A stretch of 64,000 nt of DNA from an uncultured Mollicutes bacterium. GTDB taxonomy: Bacteria; Bacillota_I; Bacilli_A; ML615J-28; CAG-313. The number at the start of each line of letters is the position of its first letter. Within the stretch, counting starts at the first letter, position 1. The notes beneath the pieces are model-generated. The model saw nothing but the letters and a program-made list of their open reading frames with translations, did not search any database and was not told the origin of the DNA. Below, one piece after another: positions 12,553-62,731 of this stretch. A program made the translations under genes and the position numbers. The stretch covers positions 25,862 through 89,861 of the forward strand of contig UQAI01000001.1 in NCBI GenBank assembly GCA_900538885.1, written 5' to 3'.

Positions 12553-12583
12553 GGTTTGATACAATGTTATCAAGCCTTTTTTT
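12553..12583 (+). terminator. tRNA-Leu rho-independent terminator hairpin (GGTTTGATACAATGTTATCAAGCC + T7); also candidate attL core
   Basis: 9-bp imperfect palindrome plus T7; near-identical copy without T tail at 62709-62731. Confidence 0.7.
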
Positions 12584-12687
12584 GTAGTTAGAATAGGTGC
12601 GAACTCAGAAAATAAGGTTATTCTGGGTTCTTTTTTCATTTATATATAGATAGTTATTATAAGGGTATTTAGAAGCTCATAGTCATA

Positions 12688-12766
12688 CTTACACGATTAC
12701 ATCAAAGGGTGCTAAAAATTTTACACGATTTGAAGTAGGGGTGCTAACGGTTTACACGATTTGCTA
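12688..12766. repeat. about 2.5 tandem copies of a ~30-bp repeat (TTACACGATT-N8-GGGTGCTAAAAATT), repeat set A
   Basis: direct tandem repetition seen in sequence; same family at 62594-62680 and partial inverted copy at 22645-22670. Confidence 0.8.
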
Positions 12767-12850
12767 CAGAGCATACTTCGTATCAATAGACAAAATGAGA
12801 AAAAAGTGTTATAATTATTGCATAATTTATTCGTTTTCGGAGGGCATAAT

Positions 12851-13042
12851 ATGGATTACGCATCTGCTATAAAGAAATTAAGAAATAAAATGATTCTTAC
12901 ACAGACTGAATTTGCAAAAGAACTCGGTGTTTCTTTTGGAGCTGTTAATAGATGGGAGTCAGGGAAATTTAAACCTACCACTAAAACGAAAAGAAAAATA
13001 GCTGAACTATTTAAGAAATACAATATAGAAGTGGAGGATTAA
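12851..13042 (+). CDS. XRE-family helix-turn-helix transcriptional regulator (possible controller of the R-M operon)
   Basis: HTH_3 pattern TQTEFAKELGVSFGAVNRWESG; start at ATG 12851 behind GGAGGG RBS. Confidence 0.6.
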   Translation: MDYASAIKKLRNKMILTQTEFAKELGVSFGAVNRWESGKFKPTTKTKRKIAELFKKYNIEVED

Positions 13043-13045
13043 TTT

Positions 13046-16000
13046 ATGGCAAGTGGTTTTAATGAAGCAACTAGAGTTCAAATGCCTGCTCTAGTTCATT
13101 TACAAAGATTAGGCTATACATACGTCGGAAAAATAACCGAAGATCAAGCTGGTGTTGTTTATGATCCTGACACCAATATTTTAATCAAAGTCTTTAAAGA
13201 ACAATTTTGTAAGTTGAATCCTGGTCATGAAGGTGAAGCAGAACAAGTACTGAAAGATATTAGAATAGAATTGGATAATGATGATCTAGGTCGTTCATTC
13301 TTTAAAAGAATGCAAATGGTATCACCAGTAAAAATCATAGATTTTGATAATATTCAAAATAACGTATTCCACTATACTGCTGAATTTACATGCAAAAGAG
13401 ATCAAGATGAATTTAGACCTGATATTACATTATTTGTTAATGGATTACCTTTATGTTTTATAGAAGTTAAAAAGCCAAACAATAAAGGTGGATTGATCGC
13501 TGAAAGTAATAGAATGAACAATCAGAGATTTCCAAATAAGAAATTTAGAAGATTCATTAACATTACCCAACTTATGATTTTCTCGAATAATATGGAATAT
13601 GATACTCTTGGAGGAATTGTACCAGTTCAAGGTGCTTTTTATTGTACTGCTTCAAGAAATAAGTCTTTTTTCAGTTGCTTTAGAGAAGAGAATCCTGGCA
13701 ATGCCTCAGTTGCGCCATACAATAAAAATTATCCTTATGAAGAGATTGATGCTGTTGTAGAAAAGAAGATTTTATCTGATTTCAATTGCCAAGTAATTCA
13801 TACATCTCCAGAATATCAAACAAACCTAAATATCAATACACCTACAAATAGAATTTTAACTTCTATGTGCAGTAAAGAACGTCTTATGTTCTTGCTAAAA
13901 TATGGAATCGCATATGTTAAAAGTGAACGTGAAGTTGATGGTAAAATTGAGAGTACAGACCAAAAACATATTATGCGTTATCAACAGATGTTTGCTGCTT
14001 TGGCCATTAGAGAAAAATTAGATAAAGGATTGACAAGCGGTGTTGTTTGGCATACTCAAGGTAGTGGAAAAACCGCACTATCTTATCATCTTAACCATGT
14101 ATTAACTGATTACTTTGCAAAGCAAAATAAAGTAGCAAAATTTTATTTTATCGTTGATAGACTTGATTTATTAGAACAAGCTTCTCAGGAATTTGAAGCC
14201 AGAGGATTGGTTGTAAAAACTGCGAACAGTAGATCAGAATTGATGGCGCAATTTAGAACTAACCAGTCTTTAGAGGGTAATAGTGGTGCCAATGAAGTAA
14301 CTGTTGTTAATATCCAAAGGTTCGAAGAAGATAAAGAGAAAGTTACACTTCCTGATTATGCTACGAATTTACAAAGAATTTTTATAATTGACGAAGCTCA
14401 CAGAGGATATAAGCCAGAGGGTAGTTTTTTAGCTAATCTATTCGATGCTGATCCTAATTCTGTCAAAATCGCATTAACAGGTACACCTTTATTGAAGGAA
14501 GAACGTTCATCTTGGAAAGTATTCGGTACATATTACCATACATATTACTATGATAAATCGATTCAAGATGGATATACATTAAAGGTATTAAGAGAGCCTG
14601 TTGAAACATCATATAAAGAAAAATTATCTGAAATATATGAAAAATTAGAAACACTAGTTCAAAAGAAGGATGTCCAAAGAACACAAATAATTGAGCATGA
14701 TGTTTATGTTAAAGAACTTTTGAGATATATCATTTCAGATTTAAAACAGTTTAGACAAATCCAAGGTGACGATACTCTTGGAGGCATGATCATTTGTGAA
14801 ACAAGTGAGCAAGCAAGAAAATTATTCGCTTTCTTTGATAGCATTCAAAAAGAACTAAATGAGAATGCGTCGTTAAAGAGTTATTTTAAGGCTGGATTAA
14901 TATTGCATGACAGCGATGATAAAGAAACTAGAAAAAAGACTGTTACAAATTTCAAGAAGAACATGACAATCGATATTTTAATCGTATTTAATATGCTATT
15001 AACAGGCTTTGATGCTCCAAGACTTAAGAGATTATATTTTGGCAGAAAATTAAAAGATCACAATTTATTACAAGCTATTACGCGTGTGAATAGACCATAT
15101 AAAGAAAATAGATATGGTTATGTAGTTGATTTTGCTGATATTAAGAAAAATTTCGATGAGACTAACGAAGCTTATATGAAGGAATTAAACCGATTCAATG
15201 ATCCTGGCGAAGTTGGCGAAGGAAACGAGACTGACACATTCAAACAAGTTATAGAAGATAAAGACGCATTGATTCAACAGATGCAAGAGGTAAAGCAAAT
15301 TTTATTTGCTTATACAACGGATAATGCAGAGGAGTTTAGTTCTGAAATCTCTACGATTGAGGATAAAGAAGAACTTTTGAAATTGAAAAAAGCACTGGTA
15401 TCAGCTAGAGATTGTTGCAACATTGTAAGAACATTTGGTGATGATGAATTAAAAGCTAAATTTGCAGCAATGGAGATTACTAAACTTCCTTCATTAATAT
15501 CAGAAGTGCAACATCACATTGACAGCATAAATCAAAAAGAAGCATTAGCTGAAAGTGACTCAACAAAGCAATTAATTAATGAAGCAATGCAAGATATTAC
15601 TTTCAAGTTTCAAATGTTGACAGAAGAAGAAATGAAAATTATTTCAGGAGGCCAGGAGTTAGAAGATAAGTGGAAGAAGACAATTCGTTCATTTACTGAA
15701 AACGAGGACCAAGAAGATCCAGAATACATTACTTTACGTCAAGCATTTATTGAAAGATTCAAAGAACATGGTTTTGTTGTTGAAAGTGTAAGCCAATTTG
15801 AAAATTATACAAAGGAGCTAGATGAAATATTAAAGAAGCTAGCTGAATTGCAAAAGAAGAATAGTGCACTGTTGAAAAAGTACAATGGTGATGCTAAGTA
15901 TGCGCGTGTCCATAAGAGAATTAAAGAAGAAAACGAAAGCAGAAAAGCTAAAGGTGAGAAGCCACTAATTTCTGAATATGATGTCGATATTATGAATGCG

Positions 16001-16213
16001 CTAAAAATTATTAAAGATGAGATAGACCAAAAAGTTTACGATAGGCATGATATCTTGAGAAAAGATGTTTACTTTGAGCAAACAGTTATGGTACATATCA
16101 ATAATGGTATTGATAGATTAGGCTTTGAAAATACTAGGGAAGATAGATTGTTTATTCAATCAAGACTAAGCACCCAGTATTTAAATCAATACCATAATAC
16201 ATATGCAGCATAA
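13046..16213 (+). CDS. hsdR: Type I restriction enzyme R subunit (HsdR)
   Basis: HsdR N-terminal nuclease domain, SF2 helicase motifs TQGSGKT and IIDEAHRG, 1055 aa. Confidence 0.9.
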   Translation: MASGFNEATRVQMPALVHLQRLGYTYVGKITEDQAGVVYDPDTNILIKVFKEQFCKLNPGHEGEAEQVLKDIRIELDNDDLGRSFFKRMQMVSPVKIIDFDNIQNNVFHYTAEFTCKRDQDEFRPDITLFVNGLPLCFIEVKKPNNKGGLIAESNRMNNQRFPNKKFRRFINITQLMIFSNNMEYDTLGGIVPVQGAFYCTASRNKSFFSCFREENPGNASVAPYNKNYPYEEIDAVVEKKILSDFNCQVIHTSPEYQTNLNINTPTNRILTSMCSKERLMFLLKYGIAYVKSEREVDGKIESTDQKHIMRYQQMFAALAIREKLDKGLTSGVVWHTQGSGKTALSYHLNHVLTDYFAKQNKVAKFYFIVDRLDLLEQASQEFEARGLVVKTANSRSELMAQFRTNQSLEGNSGANEVTVVNIQRFEEDKEKVTLPDYATNLQRIFIIDEAHRGYKPEGSFLANLFDADPNSVKIALTGTPLLKEERSSWKVFGTYYHTYYYDKSIQDGYTLKVLREPVETSYKEKLSEIYEKLETLVQKKDVQRTQIIEHDVYVKELLRYIISDLKQFRQIQGDDTLGGMIICETSEQARKLFAFFDSIQKELNENASLKSYFKAGLILHDSDDKETRKKTVTNFKKNMTIDILIVFNMLLTGFDAPRLKRLYFGRKLKDHNLLQAITRVNRPYKENRYGYVVDFADIKKNFDETNEAYMKELNRFNDPGEVGEGNETDTFKQVIEDKDALIQQMQEVKQILFAYTTDNAEEFSSEISTIEDKEELLKLKKALVSARDCCNIVRTFGDDELKAKFAAMEITKLPSLISEVQHHIDSINQKEALAESDSTKQLINEAMQDITFKFQMLTEEEMKIISGGQELEDKWKKTIRSFTENEDQEDPEYITLRQAFIERFKEHGFVVESVSQFENYTKELDEILKKLAELQKKNSALLKKYNGDAKYARVHKRIKEENESRKAKGEKPLISEYDVDIMNALKIIKDEIDQKVYDRHDILRKDVYFEQTVMVHINNGIDRLGFENTREDRLFIQSRLSTQYLNQYHNTYAA

Positions 16214-16225
16214 GGAGAGAAATAT

Positions 16226-17848
16226 ATGAATATTAAACAAAAAACAATTGACTTAATTGATGCATTGAAAGCCACTTGTCAAACATACGGAATGGGTAAT
16301 GATGGAAATGAATATAAAATTATTACACAAGTATTTTTGTATAAGTTTTTAAATGATAAATTTGGACATGAGATTAAAGAAAAGTCAGTAAAAATTGCTA
16401 AAGCAGCTAAATGGGAAGAAGAATATGAAAGCATGAGTAATGAAGAAAGGTTGGATTTATTTGATAAGCTTTCTCCTGATATTCCTCGATTATATCCTGA
16501 ACACCTTATATCGTTTTTATGGAATCAACAAAGTAAAGGTGAATTTGACTTAATTTTCGATAGCACAATGATAGATATAGCTGAGAAGAACATTGATATC
16601 TTCTCGACTATGACAGATGAAAAAACTAGAATTCCTTTATTTGAAAAATTAACCGTATTTGTTACTGATGAAGCTAAAAGAGCGCCATTTGCACGTGCTT
16701 TAGTTGATAAATTAGCAAACTTCTCTTTTGAAGAGGCGTTTTCAGAACACTATGACTTTTTTGCAACAATTTTTGAATATTTGATTAAGGATTACAATAC
16801 AGCAGGCGGTGGAAAGTATGCTGAATATTATACTCCACACTCAATTGCTACAATTATGGCTAGACTATTAGTTGGAGAAACTGATAATTTGCATGACATA
16901 GAAGTATATGATCCATCTGCTGGCACAGGAACATTATTGATGGCTCTTGCACATAAAGTTGGTGAAGATAAGTGCACCATTTATTCTCAAGACATTTCAC
17001 AAAGAAGTAATAAGATGTTGAAATTAAATTTAATATTAAATAATTTAGTTTCATCACTTGATCATGCTATTCAAGGTGATACTTTGGTTTCACCATTTCA
17101 TAAAAATGATGATGGCACTGAGTTAAAACAATTTGACTTTGTTGTTTCTAATCCACCATTCAATATGGATTTTTCTGACACCAGAGATATAATCGCAGCA
17201 AAGACAACTAGATTCTGGGCAGGCGTTCCAAATATTCCAAAGAAAAAACTTGATGGTATGCCAATATATACATGTTTTATACAACATGTTGTTAATTCTT
17301 TAAAGAAAACTGGAAAGGCAGCTATCGTTGTACCTACGGGTTTTTTATCATCTAAAAGTGGTGTTGAAGGTACCGTTTTATCAAAATTAGTGGAAGAGAA
17401 GATAGTATATGGATGTATAAGCATGCCTTCAAACGTTTTTGCTAACACCGGAACTAATGTGTCAGTTTTATTTTTAGATGGTTCTAAATCAAGTACAGAT
17501 GTTATGCTTATAGATGCTTCAAAATTAGGTGAAGAATATAAGGAAGGAAAGAATCAAAAGAGAAGATTAAGAGATTTTGAAATTAATCAGATAGTTGATT
17601 CATTTATTAATAAAGTATCAAATGACGGCTTTTCTATTAACGTTAGTTTGGATAAGGTAAAAGAAAAGAAAAATTCATTATCAGCTGGAATGTATTTTAA
17701 AGTCAAAACTGATAATCCAACTATATCTACCTCAAAATATAATGAAATCGTCTGTGATTATATTACAGCATTGGATGAATACAAGCTAAATGCAGATAAT
17801 TTTGTTGAGTGGGCGAAAGATAGTTTATTAAAGAAGAATGATAAATAG
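16226..17848 (+). CDS. hsdM: Type I restriction-modification N6-adenine DNA methyltransferase subunit (HsdM)
   Basis: HsdM N-terminal domain, SAM motif DPSAGTGTLL, catalytic NPPF motif (VVSNPPFNMDF). Confidence 0.9.
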   Translation: MNIKQKTIDLIDALKATCQTYGMGNDGNEYKIITQVFLYKFLNDKFGHEIKEKSVKIAKAAKWEEEYESMSNEERLDLFDKLSPDIPRLYPEHLISFLWNQQSKGEFDLIFDSTMIDIAEKNIDIFSTMTDEKTRIPLFEKLTVFVTDEAKRAPFARALVDKLANFSFEEAFSEHYDFFATIFEYLIKDYNTAGGGKYAEYYTPHSIATIMARLLVGETDNLHDIEVYDPSAGTGTLLMALAHKVGEDKCTIYSQDISQRSNKMLKLNLILNNLVSSLDHAIQGDTLVSPFHKNDDGTELKQFDFVVSNPPFNMDFSDTRDIIAAKTTRFWAGVPNIPKKKLDGMPIYTCFIQHVVNSLKKTGKAAIVVPTGFLSSKSGVEGTVLSKLVEEKIVYGCISMPSNVFANTGTNVSVLFLDGSKSSTDVMLIDASKLGEEYKEGKNQKRRLRDFEINQIVDSFINKVSNDGFSINVSLDKVKEKKNSLSAGMYFKVKTDNPTISTSKYNEIVCDYITALDEYKLNADNFVEWAKDSLLKKNDK

Positions 17849-17859
17849 GAGCTGTAAAT

Positions 17860-19116
17860 ATGAAACTAAGAAATATATGTAAAATAGTTACAGACTCAAT
17901 TAATCCAAAAAAACAAAAAAATAAGCTTTTCGAGCTATATAGTTTGCCCGCTTTCGATGATTTCAAAAGGCCTGAAAATGTATATGGCTCAGATATCGAG
18001 AGCAATAAGTATTTGGTTCCAGAAAAAACAATATTGTTTAATAAATTAAATGTTAGATTCAAACGTATATGGAGGATCACCAACAATAACCAGGATAATA
18101 AAATATGCTCAACTGAGTTTCTACCAATAATTGTTGATGAAAAAATAGCCGATTTTGATTATGTTTATTTTTTATTGATGTCAGATCAAGTCACAGAATA
18201 CTTATGTGCACCAACAACTAATACTTCTGGAAGTCATAAGAGAATAGATCCAGATTTTCTACTTGATATGGAAATATCCTTGCCTGAATTAGACGAGCAA
18301 GTTCGCGTTGCAAGAAAACTAAAAACGCTAGATGATGAGGTTCAGTGTTGTTTTGATTTTGAAACTAAATCATTTAAATTTTTAAAAGATACATATGATT
18401 ACTGGTTTGTTTCTTATAACTTTCCTAACAATAATGGTGATGCATATAGTGAAAATGGTGGAACATTTGTAGAGGACAAAGAAACAGGTATTAATTATCC
18501 AACAAAATGGAGTTTTAATAAGATCGGACAGTATTTTAATGTTGTGAGAGGTGTAAGTTATAAGCCTGAAGATACTTCGGAAATAGAAACCGATATTCAT
18601 ATGCCGTTATTAAGATCAAATAATATTTACGACGAGAGATTAATACATGAAGATATAGTGTTTGTTGATAAAAAAAGGGTAAGTGAAGAACAAATATTAC
18701 ATGCAAATGATGTGTTTATTTGTATGTCTAATGGCAGTAAAAATTTAATTGGTAAAAATACAATTATTCCATATGATACAGAATATGCCTTTGGAGCTTT
18801 TTGTGCTAAAATTAAGAATATAGATTGCGATTATTTAGGCTTTATAAACTTATTCTTTAAGAGTAATTATTATAAAGCTTATATCGCACAAATATGTGCA
18901 AACACTAGTATAAATAATATCGGAAATGAAATGTTAACTGACTTAAAATATCCATTACCTCCGCTAAATATCGCTAAAAAGTTTAATGAAATATATTTAA
19001 AAGTAATGTCTGAAGTCGGGAATGCGCATAAATTTATGTTATCGACAAGAACATTATTAGAAAAACATATATTTATGGACATGAATGGAGTACTCATAAA
19101 TAGTTCAGAAGATTAA
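17860..19116 (+). CDS. hsdS: Type I restriction-modification specificity subunit (HsdS), two target-recognition domains
   Basis: 418 aa, duplicated TRD/conserved-helix architecture, immediately downstream of hsdM. Confidence 0.85.
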   Translation: MKLRNICKIVTDSINPKKQKNKLFELYSLPAFDDFKRPENVYGSDIESNKYLVPEKTILFNKLNVRFKRIWRITNNNQDNKICSTEFLPIIVDEKIADFDYVYFLLMSDQVTEYLCAPTTNTSGSHKRIDPDFLLDMEISLPELDEQVRVARKLKTLDDEVQCCFDFETKSFKFLKDTYDYWFVSYNFPNNNGDAYSENGGTFVEDKETGINYPTKWSFNKIGQYFNVVRGVSYKPEDTSEIETDIHMPLLRSNNIYDERLIHEDIVFVDKKRVSEEQILHANDVFICMSNGSKNLIGKNTIIPYDTEYAFGAFCAKIKNIDCDYLGFINLFFKSNYYKAYIAQICANTSINNIGNEMLTDLKYPLPPLNIAKKFNEIYLKVMSEVGNAHKFMLSTRTLLEKHIFMDMNGVLINSSED

Positions 19117-19156
19117 AAAAGCGACTTAGCTCAATTACGAGTTAAGTCGCTATTTT

Positions 19157-19357
19157 TTATTCTGGAATATATTCCATTATATCTTTGAAGTCACAACTAA
19201 GTGTCTTGCAAATTTTGCAAAGCACATCAGTAGTTACATTTTGACCTTTGGTCATTTTAGCAATTGAAGAGGAACTAACACCAGAGAGCTTAATAAGCTC
19301 TTTTTTGTTTAGGTTCTTATCGATTAATAATTTCCATAATTTGTTATAACTTATCAT
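19157..19357 (-). CDS. XRE/Cro-family HTH protein, last gene of the minus-strand three-component operon
   Basis: 66 aa HTH_3 (ELIKLSGVSSSSIAKMTKGQNVTTDVLCKICKTL); 1-bp gap to upstream ATPase gene. Confidence 0.55.
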   Translation of the reverse strand: MISYNKLWKLLIDKNLNKKELIKLSGVSSSSIAKMTKGQNVTTDVLCKICKTLSCDFKDIMEYIPE

Positions 19358-19358
19358 T

Positions 19359-21188: not shown

Positions 21189-21190
21189 AA

Positions 21191-21628
21191 TTATTTCTTA
21201 ACTCCTTTCGTTCTATCTTTTAATTTTTGTATCGTAATAGGCTTCATTTCATCTATGATGTTAGAAGCGAATTTTTTATATTCTATAGAGTAATCATCGT
21301 TCATTTCTGACACATATGCCTTACCAGAATCGGTAATTGCGTATATAAAACCTCTATCTGGATTGTTCGTTACAGTAGCAAGACCTCTGAATAATAGTTC
21401 TTTTAGCGAGTTCTTTATAAGCTTGCGCTGTATTGTGAACTCGTTAAGTGGAAATGAGCAGACACCGTTTAAGTTTGATTCACCAAATCCATAATGTTCA
21501 GCATATATGGCAAAGAAGTCCAGACGCGCTATTTCATCTTCGTTTAGATAACTTTGTTTATCTAAAATCATAAGAAGGCGCATAGAAACTTCAAATTCAG
21601 TATTAAAAAGCTTTGTCATTATAGCCAC
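21191..21628 (-). CDS. small alpha-helical middle component (LmuC-like) of the three-gene ATPase system
   Basis: 145 aa, overlaps upstream gene by 10 nt and sits 2 nt from ATPase gene; size and position match the middle component of ABC three-component systems. Confidence 0.4.
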   Translation of the reverse strand: MAIMTKLFNTEFEVSMRLLMILDKQSYLNEDEIARLDFFAIYAEHYGFGESNLNGVCSFPLNEFTIQRKLIKNSLKELLFRGLATVTNNPDRGFIYAITDSGKAYVSEMNDDYSIEYKKFASNIIDEMKPITIQKLKDRTKGVKK

Positions 21629-22581: not shown

Positions 22582-22644
22582 TTCCTTTAGAATCGGACTA
22601 AATGGGTTAGTCCGAGTACGACCGAGTCAAAAATATGACATTTT

Positions 22645-22670
22645 ATATAATGTAATCGTCAAATCGTGTA
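22645..22670. repeat. single inverted partial copy of the TTACACGATT repeat family (repeat set B), at the junction between defence island and prophage
   Basis: reverse complement CCTTACACGATTTGACGATTACAT matches the left end of repeat set A. Confidence 0.6.
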
Positions 22671-22974: not shown

Positions 22975-23012
22975 GAAGGACCTCCGTTTCGCTAAAGAAA
23001 TTTAACATTCGG
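22975..23012 (+). terminator. terminator-like hairpin (cctccg...cggagg + T6) whose 3' arm is the GGAGG Shine-Dalgarno of the downstream gene; candidate attenuator
   Basis: inverted repeat and T run seen in sequence; ATG at 23023. Confidence 0.4.
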
Positions 23013-23022
23013 AGGTTTTTTA

Positions 23023-43719: not shown

Positions 43720-43734
43720 AAGGAGGTGAACGCA

Positions 43735-53432: not shown

Positions 53433-53927
53433 ATGGTCAATATAACAGATGTAAGACAGATTCTTCAATTCGCAATAGATGCGGAGATTAAAGTCTTTCT
53501 TGATGGCGGCTGGGGTGTAGATGCACTTCTTGGATATCAGTCAAGAAGCCATAACGATATTGATATTTTTGTAGAAAAGAAAGATTATCAGAATTTTATA
53601 GAGATAATACAAGCTAATGGATTTTATGAAATTAAGATGGAATATACAACATTGAATCATACTGTATGGGAAGATGCGAAAAACAGAATTATTGATTTGC
53701 ATTGTTTTGAATATACAGGCAAAGGTGAAATTCTTTATGAGGGGGATTGCTTTCCGTTAGAAATTTTTTCAGGTAAAGGAAAAATTGAGGAGATAGAGGT
53801 TTCCTGTATTGAACCATATAGTCAAGTAATGTTCCATCTCGGATACGAGTTTGATGAAAATGATGTACATGATGTGAAGTTATTGTGTGAGACATTTCAT
53901 ATCGAAGTTCCAAATGAGTATAGATAA
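53433..53927 (+). CDS. Lnu(A)/ANT(2'')-family nucleotidyltransferase (candidate lincosamide/aminoglycoside nucleotidyltransferase)
   Basis: FLDGGWGVDALLGYQSRSHNDIDIF matches Lnu(A) WLDGGWGVDVLTGKQQREHRDIDIDF and AadB GGGWAIDARLG...HDDIDL; C-terminal FHLGYEFDENDVHDVKLL matches Lnu(A) FHSGYDLTETDHFDIKNL; 164 aa. Confidence 0.6.
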   Translation: MVNITDVRQILQFAIDAEIKVFLDGGWGVDALLGYQSRSHNDIDIFVEKKDYQNFIEIIQANGFYEIKMEYTTLNHTVWEDAKNRIIDLHCFEYTGKGEILYEGDCFPLEIFSGKGKIEEIEVSCIEPYSQVMFHLGYEFDENDVHDVKLLCETFHIEVPNEYR

Positions 53928-54105: not shown

Positions 54106-56784
54106 ATGAAAAAAATTGGTAGATTTATTGTTTTATCTATTTTTATGATGTCAGTTATCTTTATGACTGGTTGTAGCAACAACACTCCTTATATTGGAGA
54201 AAATGGAAACTGGTGGGTTGGCGAGTCTGACACTGGGGTTCCGGCACAAGGTGAAAAAGGTGATAGTGGCGAAAAAGGTGACAAAGGAGATAAGGGTGAC
54301 AAAGGAGATAAAGGTGACACTGGGGATTCAGTAACTGTTGTTTCAGTTAAAAAAACAGGAACTGAAGAAAACGTCGATACATATACAATCACTTTCTCTG
54401 ATGGAAATACTTCAACATTTACTGTTACAAATGGTGCTGATGGCGAATCAGTTAATGTTGAATCAGTAACTAAGATTGGTTCTGATGGATTAGTTGATAC
54501 TTATAAAATAATGTTTTCTGATGGTACTGAATATACTTTTACAGTAACTAACGGAGCTGATGGCGAGTGCATAACAATTGAATCAATTGAAAAAACTGGT
54601 TCAGATGAATTAGTTGATACTTACACAATTACATTATCTGACGGAAACAAATTCACATTTACCGTTACTAATGGAAAAGACGGATTAACTCCTTATATTG
54701 GTCCTAATGGCAACTGGTGGATTGGCGATGAAGATACTGGCGAATTCGCTTCTTATAACTATGAAACTAGAGATATTACTGATGGATTAACATTTACACC
54801 TATGACCATAAATGGAAAAGGTGGTTTTGTTGTTACTGGTTTTGATCCTGTTGTTGCATACGGCAGTGAAATTTATAATCTTTTAGATAACTATCCAGAA
54901 CAATACGCGTCAACTTATGGAATTATTAATATTCCTGATTATTTAGGTACAACTCCTGTTATTGGAATCAAAGCTGAAATGTTTAAAAACGTTGATTATA
55001 TCGGCAAAGTTTCACTTTCAAGAAATACAGTTTATCTTGGAGATAATGTTTTTAATACTTGCTCAAATTTACAAGAAATTGATTTTAATGGAGCACCATT
55101 AGAAAAACTTCCAGACTATGCTTTTTATAAAACAAAACTTCAAAGCATTGATTTACCTGAAACTTTAGAAACTTTAGGTGCATATTCTCTTGCAAATACT
55201 AAATTAAAATCTATTGAATTACCAAATTCATTAACGAGATTAGAAAGTCATGCTTTATATGGAAATACTATAAAAGATATTGATATTAATAATGTTACTT
55301 ATTTTGCAGATTATTCATTATATGGAATTCATGGTAATCCTATTTATTTAACGAATGATGTTGAATATGTTGGTAGTTACGCTTTTGCTGGAACTTATGT
55401 TTATATCGAACAGGAAACAATCCCTACAACTTGGGAAAGCAATATTGCAGGTACTAGTACGTATTATGGTGGAATTGTTACTCCTAATTGTTTAATTAAT
55501 GATGAGTATATTTACTCTAAGAACGGAAATGAAATAACAGTATTAAATTATATAGGAACTGATAAACGAATTGAAATTCCTAGTTTAATTGATTCTCTAC
55601 CAGTTACAAAAATTGGATACGGTTTCAACTCTGTTAGTGAAATTGGACTTAATGTTTATGATAATATTTATACTGAAGAAAGTGGCGAAAACTATTTCAG
55701 TTATATGGTAAGAGCAGAACAAGTAGTAATTCCAAATTCAGTAAAAGCAATTGATTTAGGAGCATTCAATAATTTATTTACTACAATTTATATTCCTTCA
55801 AGCGTAGAAAAAATAAGCACTTATGCTTTAATCATTGACAATGATGACTTGTCATCAAACTTTATGATTTTTGAAGCTAATTCATATCCTACATTGATTA
55901 AAGGTTGGGTAGATGGCGAAAATGAAGGCGAAATTGATGGTGCACTATGGTTTGATGACGAAAACTATATTTGCTATTATCGCAATATCAAAAATACAAA
56001 ATGGGAAGATGTTTATTTTAATGAAGAAACAAATTCATACTATATTAAAGATTTATTTGGTTATACTTTAATTGCTTATATGAACCATGAAGTTGGTAGT
56101 AAAATTGTAATCGAATCAACTTTCAATAACGAAACTGTTCATACTATTAGAAAAGGTGCTGTTTATGGATTCTTTAATCCTAAATCCTTAATCATAGAAG
56201 ATGGAATTAAAAAGATTCAAAAGTATGCGTTTATGATGTGTGCAGACTTCAATTATGCTTATATTCCTAGCAGTGTAACAACAATTAATGCCTATGGATT
56301 TGCTGATGTTTGTTATAGATTCTATACAAATCACACATCAAAACCAGATGAATGGGATACACAATGGGCTGGTTCTTCATCTAGTTATACAATTACTTAT
56401 AAAACTGAATTAGGTGAGATTCCTACAATATCTTTTGATGGAAAGTATGAATATGCAGTTCTTGATGATGGAACAGTAAGTCTAGTTAAGTATTTGGGTT
56501 CTTCATCAACATCTACAATTAAAGTTCCAAGAACAATTGATGGATATACAGTAACTGAAGTAAAGAGCAATTGTTATTCAATTTCATACTCTTCTACAGT
56601 TTACATTTATATTCCTAAATCAATTCTTGTGTTAGAAGAAAATGCATTTTATCGCTCTTACACTTATTATACAACTTATGTTTATTTTGAAGCTGAATCT
56701 GCTTTACCTGGCTATCACTCAAAATTCACCAATACATCTTCTAGCTATTTAACTAAATACTGGAATAGAAGTATCGGATACTAA
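54106..56784 (+). CDS. surface lipoprotein with collagen-like GDK repeats, three tandem ~45-aa repeats and a BspA/internalin-type leucine-rich-repeat domain
   Basis: signal peptide plus lipobox [30 protein letters not shown], repeated TYTITFSDGN.TFTVTNGADGE units, C-terminal LRR periodicity. Confidence 0.7.
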   Translation: MKKIGRFIVLSIFMMSVIFMTGCSNNTPYIGENGNWWVGESDTGVPAQGEKGDSGEKGDKGDKGDKGDKGDTGDSVTVVSVKKTGTEENVDTYTITFSDGNTSTFTVTNGADGESVNVESVTKIGSDGLVDTYKIMFSDGTEYTFTVTNGADGECITIESIEKTGSDELVDTYTITLSDGNKFTFTVTNGKDGLTPYIGPNGNWWIGDEDTGEFASYNYETRDITDGLTFTPMTINGKGGFVVTGFDPVVAYGSEIYNLLDNYPEQYASTYGIINIPDYLGTTPVIGIKAEMFKNVDYIGKVSLSRNTVYLGDNVFNTCSNLQEIDFNGAPLEKLPDYAFYKTKLQSIDLPETLETLGAYSLANTKLKSIELPNSLTRLESHALYGNTIKDIDINNVTYFADYSLYGIHGNPIYLTNDVEYVGSYAFAGTYVYIEQETIPTTWESNIAGTSTYYGGIVTPNCLINDEYIYSKNGNEITVLNYIGTDKRIEIPSLIDSLPVTKIGYGFNSVSEIGLNVYDNIYTEESGENYFSYMVRAEQVVIPNSVKAIDLGAFNNLFTTIYIPSSVEKISTYALIIDNDDLSSNFMIFEANSYPTLIKGWVDGENEGEIDGALWFDDENYICYYRNIKNTKWEDVYFNEETNSYYIKDLFGYTLIAYMNHEVGSKIVIESTFNNETVHTIRKGAVYGFFNPKSLIIEDGIKKIQKYAFMMCADFNYAYIPSSVTTINAYGFADVCYRFYTNHTSKPDEWDTQWAGSSSSYTITYKTELGEIPTISFDGKYEYAVLDDGTVSLVKYLGSSSTSTIKVPRTIDGYTVTEVKSNCYSISYSSTVYIYIPKSILVLEENAFYRSYTYYTTYVYFEAESALPGYHSKFTNTSSSYLTKYWNRSIGY
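54376..54705 (+). repeat. three tandem ~135-bp intragenic repeats in the lipoprotein gene
   Basis: near-identical protein units; DNA periodicity visible. Confidence 0.7.
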
Positions 56785-57339: not shown

Positions 57340-57380
57340 CCCGAACTTTTGACACGATTTTCGGTCCTTAGACTTGAGGA
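57340..57380 (+). promoter_or_regulatory. ECF-sigma-type promoter-like element CCGAACTT-N16-TCCTTAGACTTGAGGA (copy 2)
   Basis: about 35/42 identity to 23691-23732; spacer contains TTGACACGATTT also found in the junction repeat family. Confidence 0.4.
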
Positions 57381-57391
57381 GGTATGAACCT

Positions 57392-57634
57392 ATGAATTTA
57401 AAAGAACAAATAAGAACCTTAAGTCAAAAGGGTTATGGCTATAAGAAGATAGCTAAAGAATTGAACATTTCAATTGGATCAGTAAGAAACGCTTTAGTTG
57501 AGACACCAAGCGATGAGGTGTGCAAGAACTGCGGAAAGAAGCTAAAGTTTGTTGTTGGTAAGAAAAAGAAGACATTCTGCTGTGATAGCTGTAGATACGA
57601 TTACTGGAACAAACAAAGAAGGGGTGGCAAGTAA
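57392..57634 (+). CDS. small HTH plus C4 zinc-ribbon DNA-binding protein preceding the recombinase pair (possible regulator or directionality factor)
   Basis: YGYKKIAKELNISIGSVRNAL HTH and CKNCGKK...CCDSC; GGAGG RBS. Confidence 0.45.
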   Translation: MNLKEQIRTLSQKGYGYKKIAKELNISIGSVRNALVETPSDEVCKNCGKKLKFVVGKKKKTFCCDSCRYDYWNKQRRGGK

Positions 57635-57635
57635 T

Positions 57636-57851
57636 ATGACTCCTTTGGAAAGATATATGGCTTCAGTTAAGGTTCTTGAGAAGATGGTTAAGGAAGGCTT
57701 GATTGATGAAAAAGAGTACATGAAAGTCGAATCGTTCCTAGCTAAAAAACACTGTATCAAACCTGACAGCATTTACCGTTCAAATCACTTGCTATTTCAG
57801 AGAAATAGAGTGATAGATAGTAATGCAAAAAAGGAGGCAAATAATGGATAG
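57636..57851 (+). CDS. small protein with SHOCT-like C-terminal motif
   Basis: 72 aa; GLIDEKEYMKVESFLAKK resembles the SHOCT motif. Confidence 0.3.
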   Translation: MTPLERYMASVKVLEKMVKEGLIDEKEYMKVESFLAKKHCIKPDSIYRSNHLLFQRNRVIDSNAKKEANNG

Positions 57852-59187
57852 AAACATAATCAAAATTGATGCAGAAAAGCAATTGAAATCCAGAATTAGG
57901 GTTTGCGCTTATGCTCGTGTTTCAAGAGATAAGGATGCGATGTTTCAATCGCTGTCAGCTCAGGTTAGCCATTACAACAAGATGATTAACAGCAACCCAG
58001 AATGGCAGTTCAAGGGAGTCTATGCGGATTATGCATTTTCAGGAACAAAGGAAGATAGACCGGAATTCCAAAAGATGCTGGAAGCCTGCAAAGCTGGTGA
58101 GATTGATTTAATTATCACAAAATCAATTTCAAGGTTCGCCAGAAACACAGAAACAGTGCTTAAAGTAGTTAGGGAATTAAAGGCTAGGGATGTAGATGTT
58201 TACTTCGAGGAACAAAAGATCCATACGATATCATCGGATGGTGAGTTCATGCTTAGCGTGCTTGCTGCTTATTACCAAGAGGAAGCCAGGTCGGTTTCAG
58301 AAAATATGAAATGGCGAATTAAGAAAGATTTCAGTCAAGGCATCATGTGGGGTGGCAAAGATAACTACGGTTACAAATATGACATCGATAAGAAGACGTT
58401 CATTGTAGTTCCTGAAGAGGCTGCTGTAGTTAAGCGAATCTTCGAACTATACATTGCTGGAGCAGGATTTCAAAAGATATCCAGCATCCTGAACTTGGAA
58501 GGCATAAAACCAATGACTGCAAATGAGTGGAGCAAGAATAACGTGACAGCCGTCATAAGCAACTCAAACTACACAGGCGACCTAATCCTTCAGAAGACAT
58601 ACCGCAAGGATTACCTATCAAAGAAAAAATGCAAGAACAACGGTGAGCTTCAGAAATACCTTGTCGAAGAGAACCATGAGCCAATAATCACTAAAGAGAT
58701 GTTTGAAAAGGCACAGAAAATCAGAAATGAGAGAATTATGAAGTATGACATTAAAACCAGAAAGGCAAAGAATAACTACCCTTTCACAGGCATTCTTAGA
58801 TGCGGATGCTGCGGTGGAGCATATCATCACAAGACGACAAGGTACAACTTAATCTGGATTTGCAGAACCTACAACACCAAAGGGAAAGGCTTCTGCTCAA
58901 GAAGCAAGCAAATAGATGAACGCAAGCTTTATGATGCGATTAACCAATACTTCGGTTGGGATAAGTTCAAACAAGATAAGTTCCTAGAGAAGGTTGAGAA
59001 GATTATAGCTAATCCAGGGAATGAGCTAGAGATTCACCTTAAGGATGGAACGGTTGACAAAATCTATTGGAATGACAGAAGCCGAAGCGAGGCATGGACT
59101 GATGATATGAAATCTAAAGCTAGAGCTAAGGCATTTAAACAAAACGAATTAAGAGGAGGGAACAACAGATGGCAAAAGTCAAAGTAA
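57844..59187 (+). CDS. large serine recombinase (CcrA-like size)
   Basis: N-terminal resolvase domain with catalytic-serine region VCAYARVSRD, recombinase domain, C-terminal Cys-rich zinc ribbon; about 448 aa. Confidence 0.8.
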   Translation: MDRNIIKIDAEKQLKSRIRVCAYARVSRDKDAMFQSLSAQVSHYNKMINSNPEWQFKGVYADYAFSGTKEDRPEFQKMLEACKAGEIDLIITKSISRFARNTETVLKVVRELKARDVDVYFEEQKIHTISSDGEFMLSVLAAYYQEEARSVSENMKWRIKKDFSQGIMWGGKDNYGYKYDIDKKTFIVVPEEAAVVKRIFELYIAGAGFQKISSILNLEGIKPMTANEWSKNNVTAVISNSNYTGDLILQKTYRKDYLSKKKCKNNGELQKYLVEENHEPIITKEMFEKAQKIRNERIMKYDIKTRKAKNNYPFTGILRCGCCGGAYHHKTTRYNLIWICRTYNTKGKGFCSRSKQIDERKLYDAINQYFGWDKFKQDKFLEKVEKIIANPGNELEIHLKDGTVDKIYWNDRSRSEAWTDDMKSKARAKAFKQNELRGGNNRWQKSK

Positions 59188-60740
59188 TACCACAAACGAT
59201 AAATCCGATGACAATGTCAGTTATTGGCTCAACTCAAAAAAGAAAAGTTGCTGCTTATGCCAGAGTAAGCACCGAGAATGAAGAACAACAATCATCATAT
59301 GAAGCACAGGTCAAATACTACACTGAGCATATAGCAACCAGACCAGACTGGGAATTCGTGAAGGTGTATTCTGATGAAGGTATATCAGGAACCAACACAA
59401 AAAGAAGAGTTGGCTTTAGATCGATGATACAGGATGCAGTTGATGGGAAGATTGACCTAATTCTAACCAAATCAATATCGAGATTTGCCAGAAACACCTT
59501 AGACAGCATATCCTACATTAGACAATTGAAAGCTGCTGGAACTGAGGTCTATTTTGAAAAGGAAAATTTATGGACATTCGATTCAAAGTCTGAAATGGTG
59601 CTGTCTATGCTTAGTGCTATTGCTCAAGAGGAAAGCCGAAGCATCTCAGAGAACGTTAAGATGGGCAAGAGATGGCAAATGAAGGAAGGAAAGGTTACAA
59701 TTCCTTGTAAGGCGTTCTTAGGATACCAAAATATAGATGGTAAGATTACGATTGATAAGGATGAGGCAATCATCGTTAGAAGAATTTACTCAATGTTCTT
59801 AAAGGACGGTATGACAAGAAAGGCTATAGCAGATACTCTGAAGGCTGAGGGAATTCCTACTCCATCAAAGAAAGGCTGCAACTGGACCGTCAACAACATT
59901 CAGTCGATACTCACCAACGAGAAGTACAAAGGCGATGCATTGCTACAAAAGGTCTATTGCGACGATTATCTTGAGCACAAGGTAAAGAAGAACAACGGTG
60001 TGTTACCTCAATATTACGTTGAGAATTCGCATCCTGGAATCATCAACAAAGAAGAATGGACAATGGTTCAGGAGGAGCTTAAGAGAAGAGAAGGCATCAG
60101 ATACTCATACCAAACAAGCAATCCTTATTTAGCAAAGCTTAGATGCTCGGAATGCGGACACTTCTTCGGAATCAAGGTATGGCATTCCAACTCAATCCAC
60201 AGAAAAGAGGTATTGCAATGCAACGGCAAATACAAATGCGGATGCAAGTCACCTAATCTTAGCCAAGATGAAGTCAACAGGAAGTTCATAGAAGCCTACA
60301 ACCAAGTGATGGACAACAAGAAAGGCTTGATAGAAGACACCAAAGAGGTCATAGAAATGCTAACCTCAACTGAGAAAATAGACGCGAAGGTACAAGCATT
60401 AACGAATGAGATGGAGGAGGTTCAGCTATTGGTAGAGAACCTAATTCACGACAATGCCAGAAGGAACCAAGACCAAGAAGAGTACGAAAGACACTATCAA
60501 GAGTTGGTAAGTCAATTCAATGCAGCTAAAGCTAAAATGAAATCCTTGCTAGAGGAAAAACAATCCAAACTAGACAGGATTGAAATACTTAATGCTTTCA
60601 TTGTTTCCTTAGAAGATAAAGAAGCCGTCATAGATGAATTCTCAACTGATCTATGGAACTTAATGATTCAAGATGCATTAGTCAGCGAGGATGGAACAAT
60701 TAAGTTTGTATTCAAGAATGGAACAGAAATTACAATGTAA
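59169..60740 (+). CDS. large serine recombinase (CcrB-like size), overlapping the upstream recombinase gene by 19 nt
   Basis: AAYARVSTENEEQQSS catalytic region, recombinase domain, zinc ribbon CSECG...C, C-terminal coiled coil; 523 aa. Confidence 0.8.
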   Translation: MAKVKVIPQTINPMTMSVIGSTQKRKVAAYARVSTENEEQQSSYEAQVKYYTEHIATRPDWEFVKVYSDEGISGTNTKRRVGFRSMIQDAVDGKIDLILTKSISRFARNTLDSISYIRQLKAAGTEVYFEKENLWTFDSKSEMVLSMLSAIAQEESRSISENVKMGKRWQMKEGKVTIPCKAFLGYQNIDGKITIDKDEAIIVRRIYSMFLKDGMTRKAIADTLKAEGIPTPSKKGCNWTVNNIQSILTNEKYKGDALLQKVYCDDYLEHKVKKNNGVLPQYYVENSHPGIINKEEWTMVQEELKRREGIRYSYQTSNPYLAKLRCSECGHFFGIKVWHSNSIHRKEVLQCNGKYKCGCKSPNLSQDEVNRKFIEAYNQVMDNKKGLIEDTKEVIEMLTSTEKIDAKVQALTNEMEEVQLLVENLIHDNARRNQDQEEYERHYQELVSQFNAAKAKMKSLLEEKQSKLDRIEILNAFIVSLEDKEAVIDEFSTDLWNLMIQDALVSEDGTIKFVFKNGTEITM

Positions 60741-60780: not shown

Positions 60781-60787
60781 GTGCTAT

Positions 60788-60848: not shown

Positions 60849-61109
60849 ATGAATAGAAAGCTTAAAGTCTATGAACAATCTATGGGTGGGGGAAACTACA
60901 CTCAAGTTCCAACGATTTTATTAAAGGGAAAGTGGCTTGAAGAAGCTGGGTTTAAAGCCGGCGAGTACGTTGAGGTTGTTTGCGATGGTGACAAGATTAT
61001 TCTTACGAAAACTAGTGCACCAGAGCCAAGAAAGTCACTCGAAGATAGAATCAAGAATTTAAGCGAAAGTCAAAAAAAGAAACTGTCTGAGATGATTGAT
61101 AAATTATAG
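60849..61109 (+). CDS. SymE-like (AbrB/SpoVT-fold) toxin-family protein
   Basis: LKGKWLEEAGFKAGEYVEVVCDGDKIILTK matches the SymE core motif L.G.WL..AGF..G..V.V. Confidence 0.5.
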   Translation: MNRKLKVYEQSMGGGNYTQVPTILLKGKWLEEAGFKAGEYVEVVCDGDKIILTKTSAPEPRKSLEDRIKNLSESQKKKLSEMIDKL

Positions 61110-61123
61110 AAGGGAGTCCAAAT

Positions 61124-62095
61124 ATGAGCCAAAAAGAAGAAATTTTAAGACTTCTAAAAGAAAATAATTCAATGACTCAAGGTGACCTATCTATTGCAAT
61201 TTATGGTGATAATAAGCATATGCCAAATATCTACGGTGCTTTAATGTCACTTGTTGACGCTGGAGTTGTTGTAAGAACTGGTTCGCAGCCTTCTTATTAT
61301 TCATTAAGTGGTGTTGAACCTGCAATTCAAGTGCAAGAAGAAGCAAATATTAATGTACATCCAAAAATTAAATATGGTAGTCAATTACAACTTGACAATG
61401 TTCTTAATTCATTAGTTACTCGAAATAATATAGAAATGGATAGAACGAATAACCTTGTTAAATTAACAAAGTCTAATTCGAGAATTATTGAAGATTTAAT
61501 TAGAAATGATTATGGATATATTCCTTTTGCCAATATGATTTACAAACAATTATGCAGTGAAAATAGTGGCTCTTTTCCAAATACTACATATGCATGGTCT
61601 GCTTTGGTTAGAATAATTGACCTTGATAACTCCACCCAAGTTTGGAGATTCCATAGACCAGATTTTCATAAAATCATAGATTATATTGTTGATCCTTCTA
61701 ATAACTTCATCGATAGATTGTCACGAGGTGATGTGTCTCTAGTGGATGAGATTAAGAATAGTATGCAACCAGTCGATATCAAGAGTCTTCCAAGTAAGAT
61801 TTGTAAATATACATCAGAGTACATGAACTTCGGTGACAATTATTTTATAAATGATTATTACGTTAGAAGCATGCTTCCTTTTTACTTGGATTATTATCAT
61901 GTTGATTGTAGCAATATTTGTATTAGGAGTTGTTTTGAAACGAAGACACATAGAGAAGCATTGCCTTATCAAGTATTGTTCGATTTATTAGATGCTTTAT
62001 TAGTAAAAATTAATGAAACAGAGCAAGAACCACTAACTAAAAATGAGTTGGATCATATTATATGGTATTGCTATAAAAGTTACAGTAGGGATTAG
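61124..62095 (+). CDS. hypothetical protein with N-terminal winged-helix-like domain; first gene of an AT-rich two-gene cassette
   Basis: 323 aa; N-terminal LRLLKENNSMTQGDLSIAIYG...LVDAGVVVR wHTH-like; remainder unrecognised. Confidence 0.35.
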   Translation: MSQKEEILRLLKENNSMTQGDLSIAIYGDNKHMPNIYGALMSLVDAGVVVRTGSQPSYYSLSGVEPAIQVQEEANINVHPKIKYGSQLQLDNVLNSLVTRNNIEMDRTNNLVKLTKSNSRIIEDLIRNDYGYIPFANMIYKQLCSENSGSFPNTTYAWSALVRIIDLDNSTQVWRFHRPDFHKIIDYIVDPSNNFIDRLSRGDVSLVDEIKNSMQPVDIKSLPSKICKYTSEYMNFGDNYFINDYYVRSMLPFYLDYYHVDCSNICIRSCFETKTHREALPYQVLFDLLDALLVKINETEQEPLTKNELDHIIWYCYKSYSRD

Positions 62096-62593
62096 GTGAT
62101 TGCTATGGCTAATATGAATAATGAACAAAAATTAATAAATGATTTACTTAAAAAAAATGCAAGTTTATCACCTGCACCATTAAAAATATTGTCATCATGT
62201 GTAGCGGCTAAGAAAAATTGTGATGTGGAATTCACAGGAACAATTCCTGGTATGCTTGTTCAAAATCAATTTTGTTTGGAGGCTAAATCTGATAAAGCTA
62301 CTAATAAAAGTAATAATGTACTGCTTATCTTCGGTGATATATTAAAAGATAGAAAACTAAATGGATTGTCCAATGTTTCTTATGGTGCGTTGTTAGAGTA
62401 CCACTCATCTCAAGGAATGAAGAGTTTTTTTATAGATCAAATTCAAAAATACATCGATTCTGTTGACTGGGATAATTTTGGTTCAACTTATGGATGCGAT
62501 TATATTTTCTTCTATGACGATTCAACACATGAGTTATTCTATTCAGAATGGACAGGCTTCGTTACTGCAAAATCAATAAAAAAGTGGTTCTAG
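62096..62593 (+). CDS. hypothetical protein, second gene of the cassette
   Basis: 165 aa, starts at the stop of the upstream gene (coupled); no motif recognised. Confidence 0.3.
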   Translation: MIAMANMNNEQKLINDLLKKNASLSPAPLKILSSCVAAKKNCDVEFTGTIPGMLVQNQFCLEAKSDKATNKSNNVLLIFGDILKDRKLNGLSNVSYGALLEYHSSQGMKSFFIDQIQKYIDSVDWDNFGSTYGCDYIFFYDDSTHELFYSEWTGFVTAKSIKKWF

Positions 62594-62680
62594 GGGTGCT
62601 AAAAGTTGACACGATTTGAAGCAAGGGTGCTAAAAATTTTACACGATTTAAAAGTAGGGGTGCTAAAATTGTATTAAAAC
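62594..62680. repeat. about 2.5 tandem copies of the ~30-bp GGGGTGCTAAAA-TTGACACGATTTGAAG repeat (set C)
   Basis: same family and orientation as 12688-12766. Confidence 0.8.
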
Positions 62681-62708
62681 ATTTCTACTTTGACATAAGA
62701 AAAGCAAA

Positions 62709-62731
62709 GGTTTGATACAAGTATCAAGCCC
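62709..62731. mobile_element. attR-like duplicate of the tRNA-Leu terminator hairpin (GGTTTGATACAAGTATCAAGCCC), right boundary of the ~50-kb accessory segment
   Basis: 22/24 identity to 12553-12576; flanks diverge on both sides. Confidence 0.55.

Follow-up and report, generated by a model that had tools for sequence, protein, structure and literature searches.

A 50-kb prophage at the CCA end of a tRNA-Leu gene in an uncultured gut Bacilli bacterium, and its probable integration by large-serine-recombinase-type recombination

The ssrA islands of Dehalococcoides form tandem arrays behind a small stable RNA gene, carry a co-transcribed pair of serine recombinase genes (DsiB/DsiA), and include members without recombinases that were interpreted as cis-mobilizable elements (PMC3146451). 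They are the nearest described analogue of the locus analysed here, a segment of 50,156 bp (12540-62695) directly behind a tRNA-Leu(GAG) gene in a window of 64,000 nt (contig UQAI01000001.1, positions 25,862 to 89,861), which is one temperate siphovirus-like prophage of an uncultured human-gut Bacilli bacterium. Both systems use the 3' end of a small stable RNA gene, and both show tandem arrays, recombinase-less members and two serine recombinase genes. However, the Dehalococcoides target is a tmRNA gene, entered inside the T-loop, with a 20-bp direct repeat and a small second recombinase of about 200 amino acids (aa) (PMC3146451), whereas the present element targets tRNA-Leu through a 2-bp core at the CCA end, encodes two large recombinases and is itself a complete phage.

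Adjacent large serine recombinase (LSR) genes, a target at the 3' end of a conserved gene, and cassette arrays of which some lack recombinases are also known from the staphylococcal cassette chromosome mec and the Enterococcus cassette chromosome with their CcrAB recombinases (PMC6222049). There the target is rlmH and the elements are not phages, and the likeness to CcrA/CcrB is one of arrangement. Islands of tyrosine integrases (Islander, PMC4383910) and the accretion of cis-mobilizable elements (PMC5704250) resemble this locus in the tRNA 3'-end target, in the restoration of the displaced part, in tandem accretion, and in decayed or non-autonomous members that keep their attachment (att) sites; in contrast to these islands, no tyrosine integrase was found here in the ORFs scanned and no tRNA fragment is duplicated. 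According to the Islander paper, a widely used reference, no serine-family integrase was known to target tRNA genes (PMC4383910), and we found no description of serine-integrase integration at tRNA-Leu in the full-text literature searched, which is not proof of novelty. The phage large serine integrases (phiC31, Bxb1, A118/LI, TP901-1, SPbeta SprA) share with this locus the domain set Resolvase, Recombinase and zinc ribbon, an attP of about 50 bp with an imperfect dyad, a non-palindromic crossover of 2 bp, and the lack of target duplication. They differ from it in having one recombinase gene instead of two in tandem; moreover, the tRNA CCA-end target, P' and B' half-sites that are near copies of each other, and conserved 32-nt motifs flanking both arms distinguish the present case.

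An earlier note on this DNA had proposed that two near-identical hairpins mark attL and attR of one site-specifically integrated element of about 50 kb at the tRNA-Leu 3' end. To define the left boundary, we used human-gut metagenome contigs encoding an identical thioesterase just upstream of the tRNA gene, eight of which were compared with the window. The tRNA gene itself (12454-12539, plus strand; ARAGORN; 51.4 bits with the Rfam tRNA model) encodes its CCA, and an Rfam scan of the window and of one contig extending it to the right (L011) returned nothing but this tRNA. All nine loci share one sequence through ..GCTGCACCA, and their divergence begins immediately past it, i.e., after 12539. 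Metagenomes that contain the element include ERZ914598, ERZ914603 and ERZ1742522. Behind the point of divergence, one of the eight holds the content of the window, two hold other restriction-modification (R-M) or defence islands, two a related phage directly at the tRNA (L005, L008), two a small element with an orthologous LSR pair beside the tRNA, and one is nearly empty (L007). Each occupant carries its own 12-nt A-rich spacer, its own variant of a TGATAC-containing hairpin, a second hairpin and iterated motifs; hence, on the left side, the hairpin moves with the element.

Exact look-ups of the right-end open reading frame (ORF) and of the second recombinase gene, LSR2, matched only their own genomic context, so the right boundary was defined with diverged homologues. 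The phages of L012 and L013, whose LSR2 proteins are 75% and 69% identical to that of the window, share with it the terminal 40 nt GGGGTGCTAAA(A)TTGTATTAAAACATTTCTACTTTGACA, and the window diverges right after. This end, the P arm, was also found in one IMG/VR contig (L015) and in 33 metagenome loci. Together they provided 30 distinct downstream sequences, all of which break after TTTGACA (62695). Past this break there is again a spacer of about 12 nt, followed in 20 of the 30 by a hairpin with GATAC at +14..+26. All attL and attR joints have nothing in common but the CA that ends the encoded CCA. Compared with the tRNA end, the distal end has no more than CA(TA) in common, and no tRNA fragment is duplicated there, the repeat being downstream flank. 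Judged by these joints, the 2-bp core appears to be the signature of the staggered cut of a serine recombinase rather than a duplicated core.

The boundaries place attL at 12513-12564 (plus strand), composed of the B arm (the tRNA 3' part, about 12513-12537), CA at 12538-12539 and the P' arm TATTAGTAGAATAGGTTTGATACAA, and attR at 62669-62720 (plus strand), composed of the P arm TTGTATTAAAACATTTCTACTTTGA, CA at 62694-62695 and the B' arm TAAGAAAAGCAAAGGTTTGATACAA. When the ends of the element are rejoined (62695 to 12540), they yield the 52-bp site TTGTATTAAAACATTTCTACTTTGA[CA]TATTAGTAGAATAGGTTTGATACAA, in which P and P' are mirror-symmetric around CA at 18 of 25 positions, a value reached by only 2 of 200,000 random pairs of 25-mers from the window; P and B match at 10 of 25. 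The rejoined site has the shape of an LSR attP. Behind the tRNA, L007 and L136 have a sequence identical to the B' arm; L136 is a species-representative metagenome-assembled genome (MAG), 'Bacilli bacterium HGM10607', and identifies the host. The predicted attB (..12539 joined to 62696.., i.e., tRNA..CACCA followed by TAAGAAAAGCAAAGGTTTGATACAA) occurs verbatim in both.

The same arm pair was found at other tRNA-Leu genes. In L165, the same phage occupies a diverged tRNA-Leu(GAG) gene of a related host, with an identical P' arm directly after CCA. In L046 and L023, a P' arm of the type xxxxAGTAGAAy and a hairpin directly follow the CCA of two different tRNA-Leu(CAA) genes, and the P arm lies 4,975 bp and 2,411 bp downstream, respectively. 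The P arm could be checked at all independent insertions but L165. All three represent separate integration events with one arm pair and one CA in common.

The candidate enzymes are encoded near the right end, in a recombination module (57374-60740, plus strand) conserved in the same order in L012, L013, L014 and L004. It comprises genes for a helix-turn-helix (HTH)/zinc-ribbon protein (86 aa, 57374-57634), a SHOCT protein (71 aa, 57637-57851), LSR1 (447 aa, 57844-59187) and LSR2 (523 aa, 59169-60740). Both recombinases have the domains PF00239, PF07508 and PF13408 (Resolvase, Recombinase, Zn_ribbon_recom), and their translations contain the catalytic serine motif, as YARVSRDKD in LSR1 and YARVSTENE in LSR2. 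The catalytic domain matched PDB entry 3g13 with an E value of 2.9e-43, and the PDB matches included the TP901-1 integrase, TnpX and the catalytic domain of a conjugative-transposon recombinase. The pair is conserved as a pair in the window, L012, L013 and L004, and no tyrosine integrase (PF00589) was encoded by any of the 46 ORFs scanned, i.e., almost all ORFs of at least 100 aa in the segment and three smaller ones. The domain set, the serine motif, the non-palindromic 2-bp core and a dyad-symmetric attP of about 50 bp distinct from attB were all present at the sequence level. We infer that LSR1, LSR2 or both catalyse the integration.

Given the boundaries at both ends, the common core of 2 bp, the symmetry seen on rejoining, the naturally occurring attB and the reuse of the arm pair at other tRNA-Leu genes, it is very likely that the prophage was integrated at the tRNA-Leu CCA end by conservative recombination of the large-serine-recombinase type, and that the hairpins belong to the P' and B' arms. 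The phage attP would be TTGTATTAAAACATTTCTACTTTGA[CA]TATTAGTAGAATAGGTTTGATACAA, and attB would consist of the tRNA-Leu 3' end through the CA of CCA, a 12-nt spacer and the left arm of a terminator hairpin. Strand exchange at CA would produce attL (tRNA and P' arm) and attR (P arm and the old flank). Excision is predicted to create the joints ..TTTGACATATTAGTAG.. and ..CACCATAAGAAAAGC.., and the corresponding synthetic joints would read ..AACATTTCTACTTTGACATATTAGTAGAATAGGTTTG.. for attP and ..TTTGCTGCACCATAAGAAAAGCAAAGGTTTG.. for attB. As the P' arm is a close copy of the B' arm, with the hairpin and the T-run included, the tRNA-Leu gene retains a terminator after integration. This agrees with the regeneration of the target proposed earlier, in that the element brings a replacement for what it displaces. 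Moreover, since attL (B and P') resembles attB, newcomers can enter at the tRNA and displace residents rightwards into arrays, which matches the accretion or cis-mobilizable model put forward for other integrases (PMC5704250, PMC3146451).

The outer motifs recognised by canonical large serine integrases are spaced differently in attP half-sites and in attB half-sites. At this locus, P' and B' hold TTTGATAC in the same register, which does not fit that difference and bears on the control of direction; this, like the following observations, weighs against the proposed mechanism. The circular excised form suggested in the earlier note did not turn up: no excised attP junction was found in public contigs, in IMG/VR, from which the exact junction was absent, or among 50,697 GenBank phage records, none of which matched the right end. 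No P-arm locus had phage early genes downstream when window proteins were compared with these loci by tblastn, so none offers a proven free attP. Two loci (L018, L033) have P-CA-P'-like joints, which can equally be explained as internal joints of tandem arrays. A truly virgin attB was not seen either. In the comparison with an empty-site relative, the predicted attB is there verbatim in L007 and L136, but this 'empty' site itself heads a 1.3-kb cassette. Finally, 50 kb including 10 kb of cargo may exceed the packaging capacity of the capsid. In a separate search of IMG/VR with a shorter P-arm pattern, the only added match (L166) was a chance one inside a coding region. No directionality factor was identified in the prophage.

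The 1.3-kb cassette of L007 (within 10589-12110) contains one gene of 289 aa and lies between two hairpin heads; a head and a truncated HTH gene come after it, ahead of a core yaaD-like gene. The tail of this cassette belongs to a different family, with GTGTACGCA repeats and the end ..AAATTGTATCAAAATAGGTATTCGCA[CA], and several att-arm families therefore share the outer TTGTATYAAAA motif. The end of yet another family was seen in L045 (1-110), where iterated GGGGTTGCA/GAACGATTA are followed by GAGTTTAAGTCCCATCGGTTGTACCA, similar to a tRNA 3' end, which is joined directly to a window-type P' head; this right arm seems to mimic the tRNA end. The small element beside the tRNA in L004 and L006 (10493-17650, about 7 kb) encodes a DUF3987 primase, an HTH_17 excisionase-like protein and the orthologous LSR pair, 49% and 46% identical to LSR1 and LSR2. 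It uses the same tRNA, its recombinase genes adjoin attL, i.e., they have the opposite position relative to the att sites, and BREX or type I R-M cassettes come next.

It could be argued that the segment consists of two tandem elements, a defence island with att bounds of its own (12540 to about 22900) followed by an independent prophage (about 22900 to 62695). The first 10 kb contain a left cargo slot at 12765-22889, annotated with Pfam and a promoter scan. A strong promoter (12787-12815) precedes an HTH gene (12851-13042) and type I R-M genes hsdR/M/S (13046-19116), which are followed on the minus strand by another HTH gene (19157-19357) and an ABC-3C system (19359-22581). The GC content steps from about 0.31 to 0.37-0.41 (0.36-0.41 in the phage, about 0.30 in the left cargo and 0.28-0.32 in the host flank), recombinase-less cassettes with a head and tail of their own do exist (L012b, L046, L023), and such phages are also found directly at the tRNA without an island (L005, L008). 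However, the window holds a single P arm, with no second one even at 3 mismatches, and there is no hairpin or head at 22582-23022. Moreover, in L165 a phage backbone that is 96% identical over 7.8 kb surrounds unrelated cargo of 9.5 kb (Eco57I-like R-M, AIPR and M78-like genes) without an internal P arm. The breakpoints of this cargo correspond to window positions 12765, just after the left repeats, and 22889, which is 133 nt short of the sigma-like gene; from 22890 on, the two prophages are homologous again. As the R-M/ABC-3C island has no tail of its own and L165 has alternative cargo between the same breakpoints, the island is a swappable cargo slot within the prophage, and two tandem elements are very improbable.

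Another explanation concerns the hairpin pair itself, which might belong to a common terminator family and have arisen at both places independently of integration. The near-identity noted earlier is real: copy 1, GGTTTGATACAATGTTATCAAGCC (12553-12576), lies 13 nt past the end of tRNA-Leu(GAG) and is followed by T7, and copy 2, GGTTTGATACAAGTATCAAGCCC (62709-62731), differs from it only by a 2-nt deletion in the loop, with 22 of 24 aligned columns matching. This indel is the reason that an ungapped repeat finder overlooked the pair. The identity of the repeat, AGGTTTGATACAA…TATCAAGCC, begins one base further to the left, with A at 12552 and 62708. Copy 1 with its T-run (12552-12584, plus strand) folds at -12.4 kcal/mol (z -4.4) as a proper intrinsic terminator, whereas copy 2 (62708-62731, plus strand) folds at -10 kcal/mol and has no T-run. 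In favour of a terminator family, every element brings its own hairpin variant, and the arrangement of tRNA, about 12 nt and a GGTTTGATAC hairpin is widespread. In a scan of species-representative genomes for TGATAC 15-19 nt past a tRNA end, 86 of 116 hits were at tRNA-Leu, and 38 of the 116 carried the four extra bases of GGTTTGATAC, with 34 of these 38 at tRNA-Leu, mostly in MAGs of Acholeplasmataceae, Izemoplasmatales, other Mycoplasmatota, Bacilli and Clostridia. Nevertheless, the distance between hairpin and crossover is fixed in attL and attR, GATAC recurs at +14..+26 in 20 of 30 independent arms, and copy 2, devoid of its T-run, terminates nothing. Furthermore, TTTGATACAA, the left arm of copy 1, forms the outside of the P' half-site (+16..+25), and the P arm has its mirror image, TTGTATTAAA, equally far from CA on the opposite side. 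An origin as an independent terminator is therefore highly improbable, and TTTGATAC would be a recognition motif beyond its part in a terminator. A likeness also exists between TTTGATACAA and the complement of the tRNA T-loop (GATTTGAAC), on the B-arm side.

Several genomes of Acholeplasmataceae and Izemoplasmatales have inserts in the hairpin loop behind the tRNA (loci L036, L074, L081, L093 and L125, the last from Acholeplasma equifetale). Some of these loops include about 20 nt (TTGTCAAGAGAAAGTAGACATG) that resemble the reverse complement of the P arm, and others carry a GCGATTTACTAATCGCC insert; such inserts could be scars or nested sites.

The earlier note had also taken the hairpin for a duplicated core. 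This would put the crossover in or at the terminator, as in tyrosine-integrase islands that duplicate part of their target. Such a core is the usual mode of tRNA-associated islands (PMC4383910), and the 22/24 identity of the copies would suit it. The strain comparison and the right junctions speak otherwise, as in every strain the 12 nt that separate tRNA and hairpin vary along with the element and 30 of 30 right junctions break 13 nt before the hairpin, so that the exchange lies 13 nt upstream of each hairpin, at CA. The loop lengths of the hairpins also differ, none of the scanned ORFs encodes a tyrosine integrase, and the far end has no duplicated tRNA fragment; a hairpin core is thus extremely unlikely. 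Nor are the flanks of the hairpins unrelated, as had been stated: the 12-nt stretches before both are related, with P' and B' agreeing at 19 of 25 positions, and a second, 32-nt repeat is present at both ends. Hardly credible, too, is a passive hotspot in which homologous recombination between conserved flanking genes creates the variation, for although the same flanks enclose very different content among strains, and the cargo slot of the prophage probably does turn over by homologous recombination, the breakpoints fall on a 2-bp core with base precision, hosts with unrelated flanks and differing tRNA-Leu genes have the conserved ends in common, and the rejoined ends are symmetric.

With integration of a single prophage at CA as the preferred reading, the two hairpins have different origins. 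Copy 1 forms the outside of the phage P' arm and also serves as the replacement terminator of tRNA-Leu. Copy 2 forms the outside of the B' arm, i.e., the displaced flank that followed tRNA-Leu before integration. The 12-mer AGGTTTGATACA of the hairpin occurs 3 times in the window (0.48 expected; 3 reached in 1 of 100 shuffles), the third copy lying on the minus strand within a coding region (57753-57764). This half-copy was considered as an internal att or autoregulatory site and rejected, since its codons (C-I-K-P) belong to the SHOCT gene and its conservation goes with that of the protein; the match is probably a coincidence of coding. Shortly downstream of these codons (GTATCAAACCT), within 57741-57830, the window, L012, L013 and L014 share a nearly invariant 27-nt sequence, ATTTAYCGTTCAAATCACTTGCTATTT. 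It forms an inverted repeat (ATCACTTGCTATTTC / GAAATAGAGTGAT) immediately before the ribosome-binding site of LSR1 and resembles the tRNA T-arm; it may regulate recombinase expression.

Both ends (12685-12770 and 62594-62670) carry the 32-nt repeat, GGGTGCTAAAA..TTACACGATTT, as direct copies. On the left, ACACGATT / GGGTGCTAA recur with a period of 31-32 nt (plus strand), in a position that is constant relative to the crossover (+143..+225) for the window, L046, L023 and L012b, including cassettes with unrelated first genes. On the right, three GGGTGCTAAAA units (plus strand), the last of which merges into the P arm, lie within the last 105 nt or so, a stretch that is 90-93% identical in more than 25 loci. 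The motifs are retained even in cassettes of 1-5 kb without a recombinase. They would act in cis, and they are candidates for accessory recombination sites or for operators of a phage regulator. A role as sigma-70 promoters found no support in a promoter scan. Single TTACACGATTT copies are present in intergenic positions upstream of the ABC-3C operon (22655-22675, minus strand) and of the HTH/SHOCT/LSR operon (57345-57362, plus strand), and an inverted copy closes the cargo slot in the window and in L165 (about 9725-9745, minus strand). These scattered copies suggest an operator of a phage regulator.

Tandem arrays at the tRNA-Leu site had been anticipated, and other mobile DNA does lie there in tandem. 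Elements that share the head and tail of the phage and lack a recombinase include one of 6.5 kb with methyltransferases (L012b), one of 4,975 bp with HTH and R-M genes (L046), one of 2,411 bp encoding a Schlafen/AlbA_2-type protein (L023) and one of 1,041 bp (L042). These four have the form expected of cis-mobilizable elements gathered by accretion, which the tail-less R-M/ABC-3C island of the window does not have. In L012, a recombinase-less cassette stands directly behind the phage, and in L025 a window-type P arm abuts the head of an L004-type element. The recombinase-less cassettes would be mobilised in trans.

To the right of copy 2, the window contains the left end of a conjugative element (62732-64000, minus strand; Pfam), into which L009-L011 extend the window. 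A serine recombinase gene had been thought to start about 60 bp to the right of copy 2. Being a minus-strand gene, it instead has its 3' end there, facing copy 2; the window holds the 3' part of this DUF4368 gene (62794 to beyond 64000, 5'-truncated). In L010 (11626-12963) and L011 (12900-13700) the protein has 445 aa, in which unrelated sequence takes the place of about the first 70 residues of the catalytic domain, the catalytic serine region among them. DUF6017, DUF3801, TraG and Maff2 genes follow. The left end of the conjugative element abuts copy 2 where its T-run should be, and the same joint between hairpin and conjugative element is seen in L028, where a different phage and spacer precede it. 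The neighbouring recombinase represents the decayed end of a conjugative element that was inserted just after the hairpin and cut off the T-run of copy 2.

As regards the prophage itself, the head contains a second terminator-like hairpin (12601-12636, plus strand; -11.9 kcal/mol), found at the equivalent position in L002, L003, L005, L007, L046 and L165. The phage core (22890-57300, plus strand), delimited by Pfam matches and GC content, begins with a sigma-like gene (219 aa, 23023-23682), followed by genes for DUF2800, AAA_24, helicase, primase, RusA and HNH proteins. The structural genes run from terS (31428-31994), through a ParB-methylase gene, terL (36345-37946), and portal and ClpP protease genes, to capsid (39932-41137) and tape measure (43726-46338) genes, with tail proteins next. 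They are followed by a tail fibre gene with collagen-like repeats (49997-52288), an aminoglycoside-2''-adenylyltransferase-like nucleotidyltransferase gene (53433-53927), and a gene for a BspA-type leucine-rich-repeat protein of 892 aa, lipoprotein-like and also with collagen-like GDK repeats (54106-56784). With terS, terL, portal, protease, capsid, tape measure and tail proteins, the set expected of an intact phage is present; no lysis module was identified in the phage gene set. An amidoligase and gamma-glutamyl cyclotransferase pair lies at 34670-36116. The DUF2800 gene (23983-24729) encodes 248 aa that cover only profile positions 1-234 of 368, a short form common to L164 and L165, and its homologue in the phages of L005 and L008, of 379 aa, contains an additional PDDEXK_1 domain. 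A right cargo slot (60849-62593, plus strand) between LSR2 and the right repeats holds a SymE-like toxin gene (60849-61109) and two ORFs without a family match (61124-62095 and 62096-62593); its content is different or missing in L013 and L012.

If only the ordinary part of this account holds, the locus is a well-delimited prophage with a corrected crossover point. Beyond that, comparative data alone provide a base-exact attP/attB pair at the tRNA-Leu CCA end for a conserved pair of large serine recombinases, with arms reused at at least four different tRNA-Leu genes in uncultured gut and digester bacteria. This would be a natural recombinase and att set of the kind sought in genome engineering. 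The locus also indicates a route to a defence-gene hotspot, in which a target-mimicking left arm would regenerate the site, defence cargo would be swapped, and the ends would be shared with recombinase-less cassettes. More tentatively, and on balance doubtfully, the iterated motifs might be 'arm-type' accessory sites of a two-recombinase LSR system and, together with the attB-regenerating P' arm, underlie a cassette economy in which recombinase-less defence cassettes are captured, stacked and moved by phage LSR pairs, with the tRNA-Leu genes of Mycoplasmatota, Bacilli and Clostridia as their sites. If true, this economy would be functionally integron-like, but built on serine recombinases and tRNA ends.

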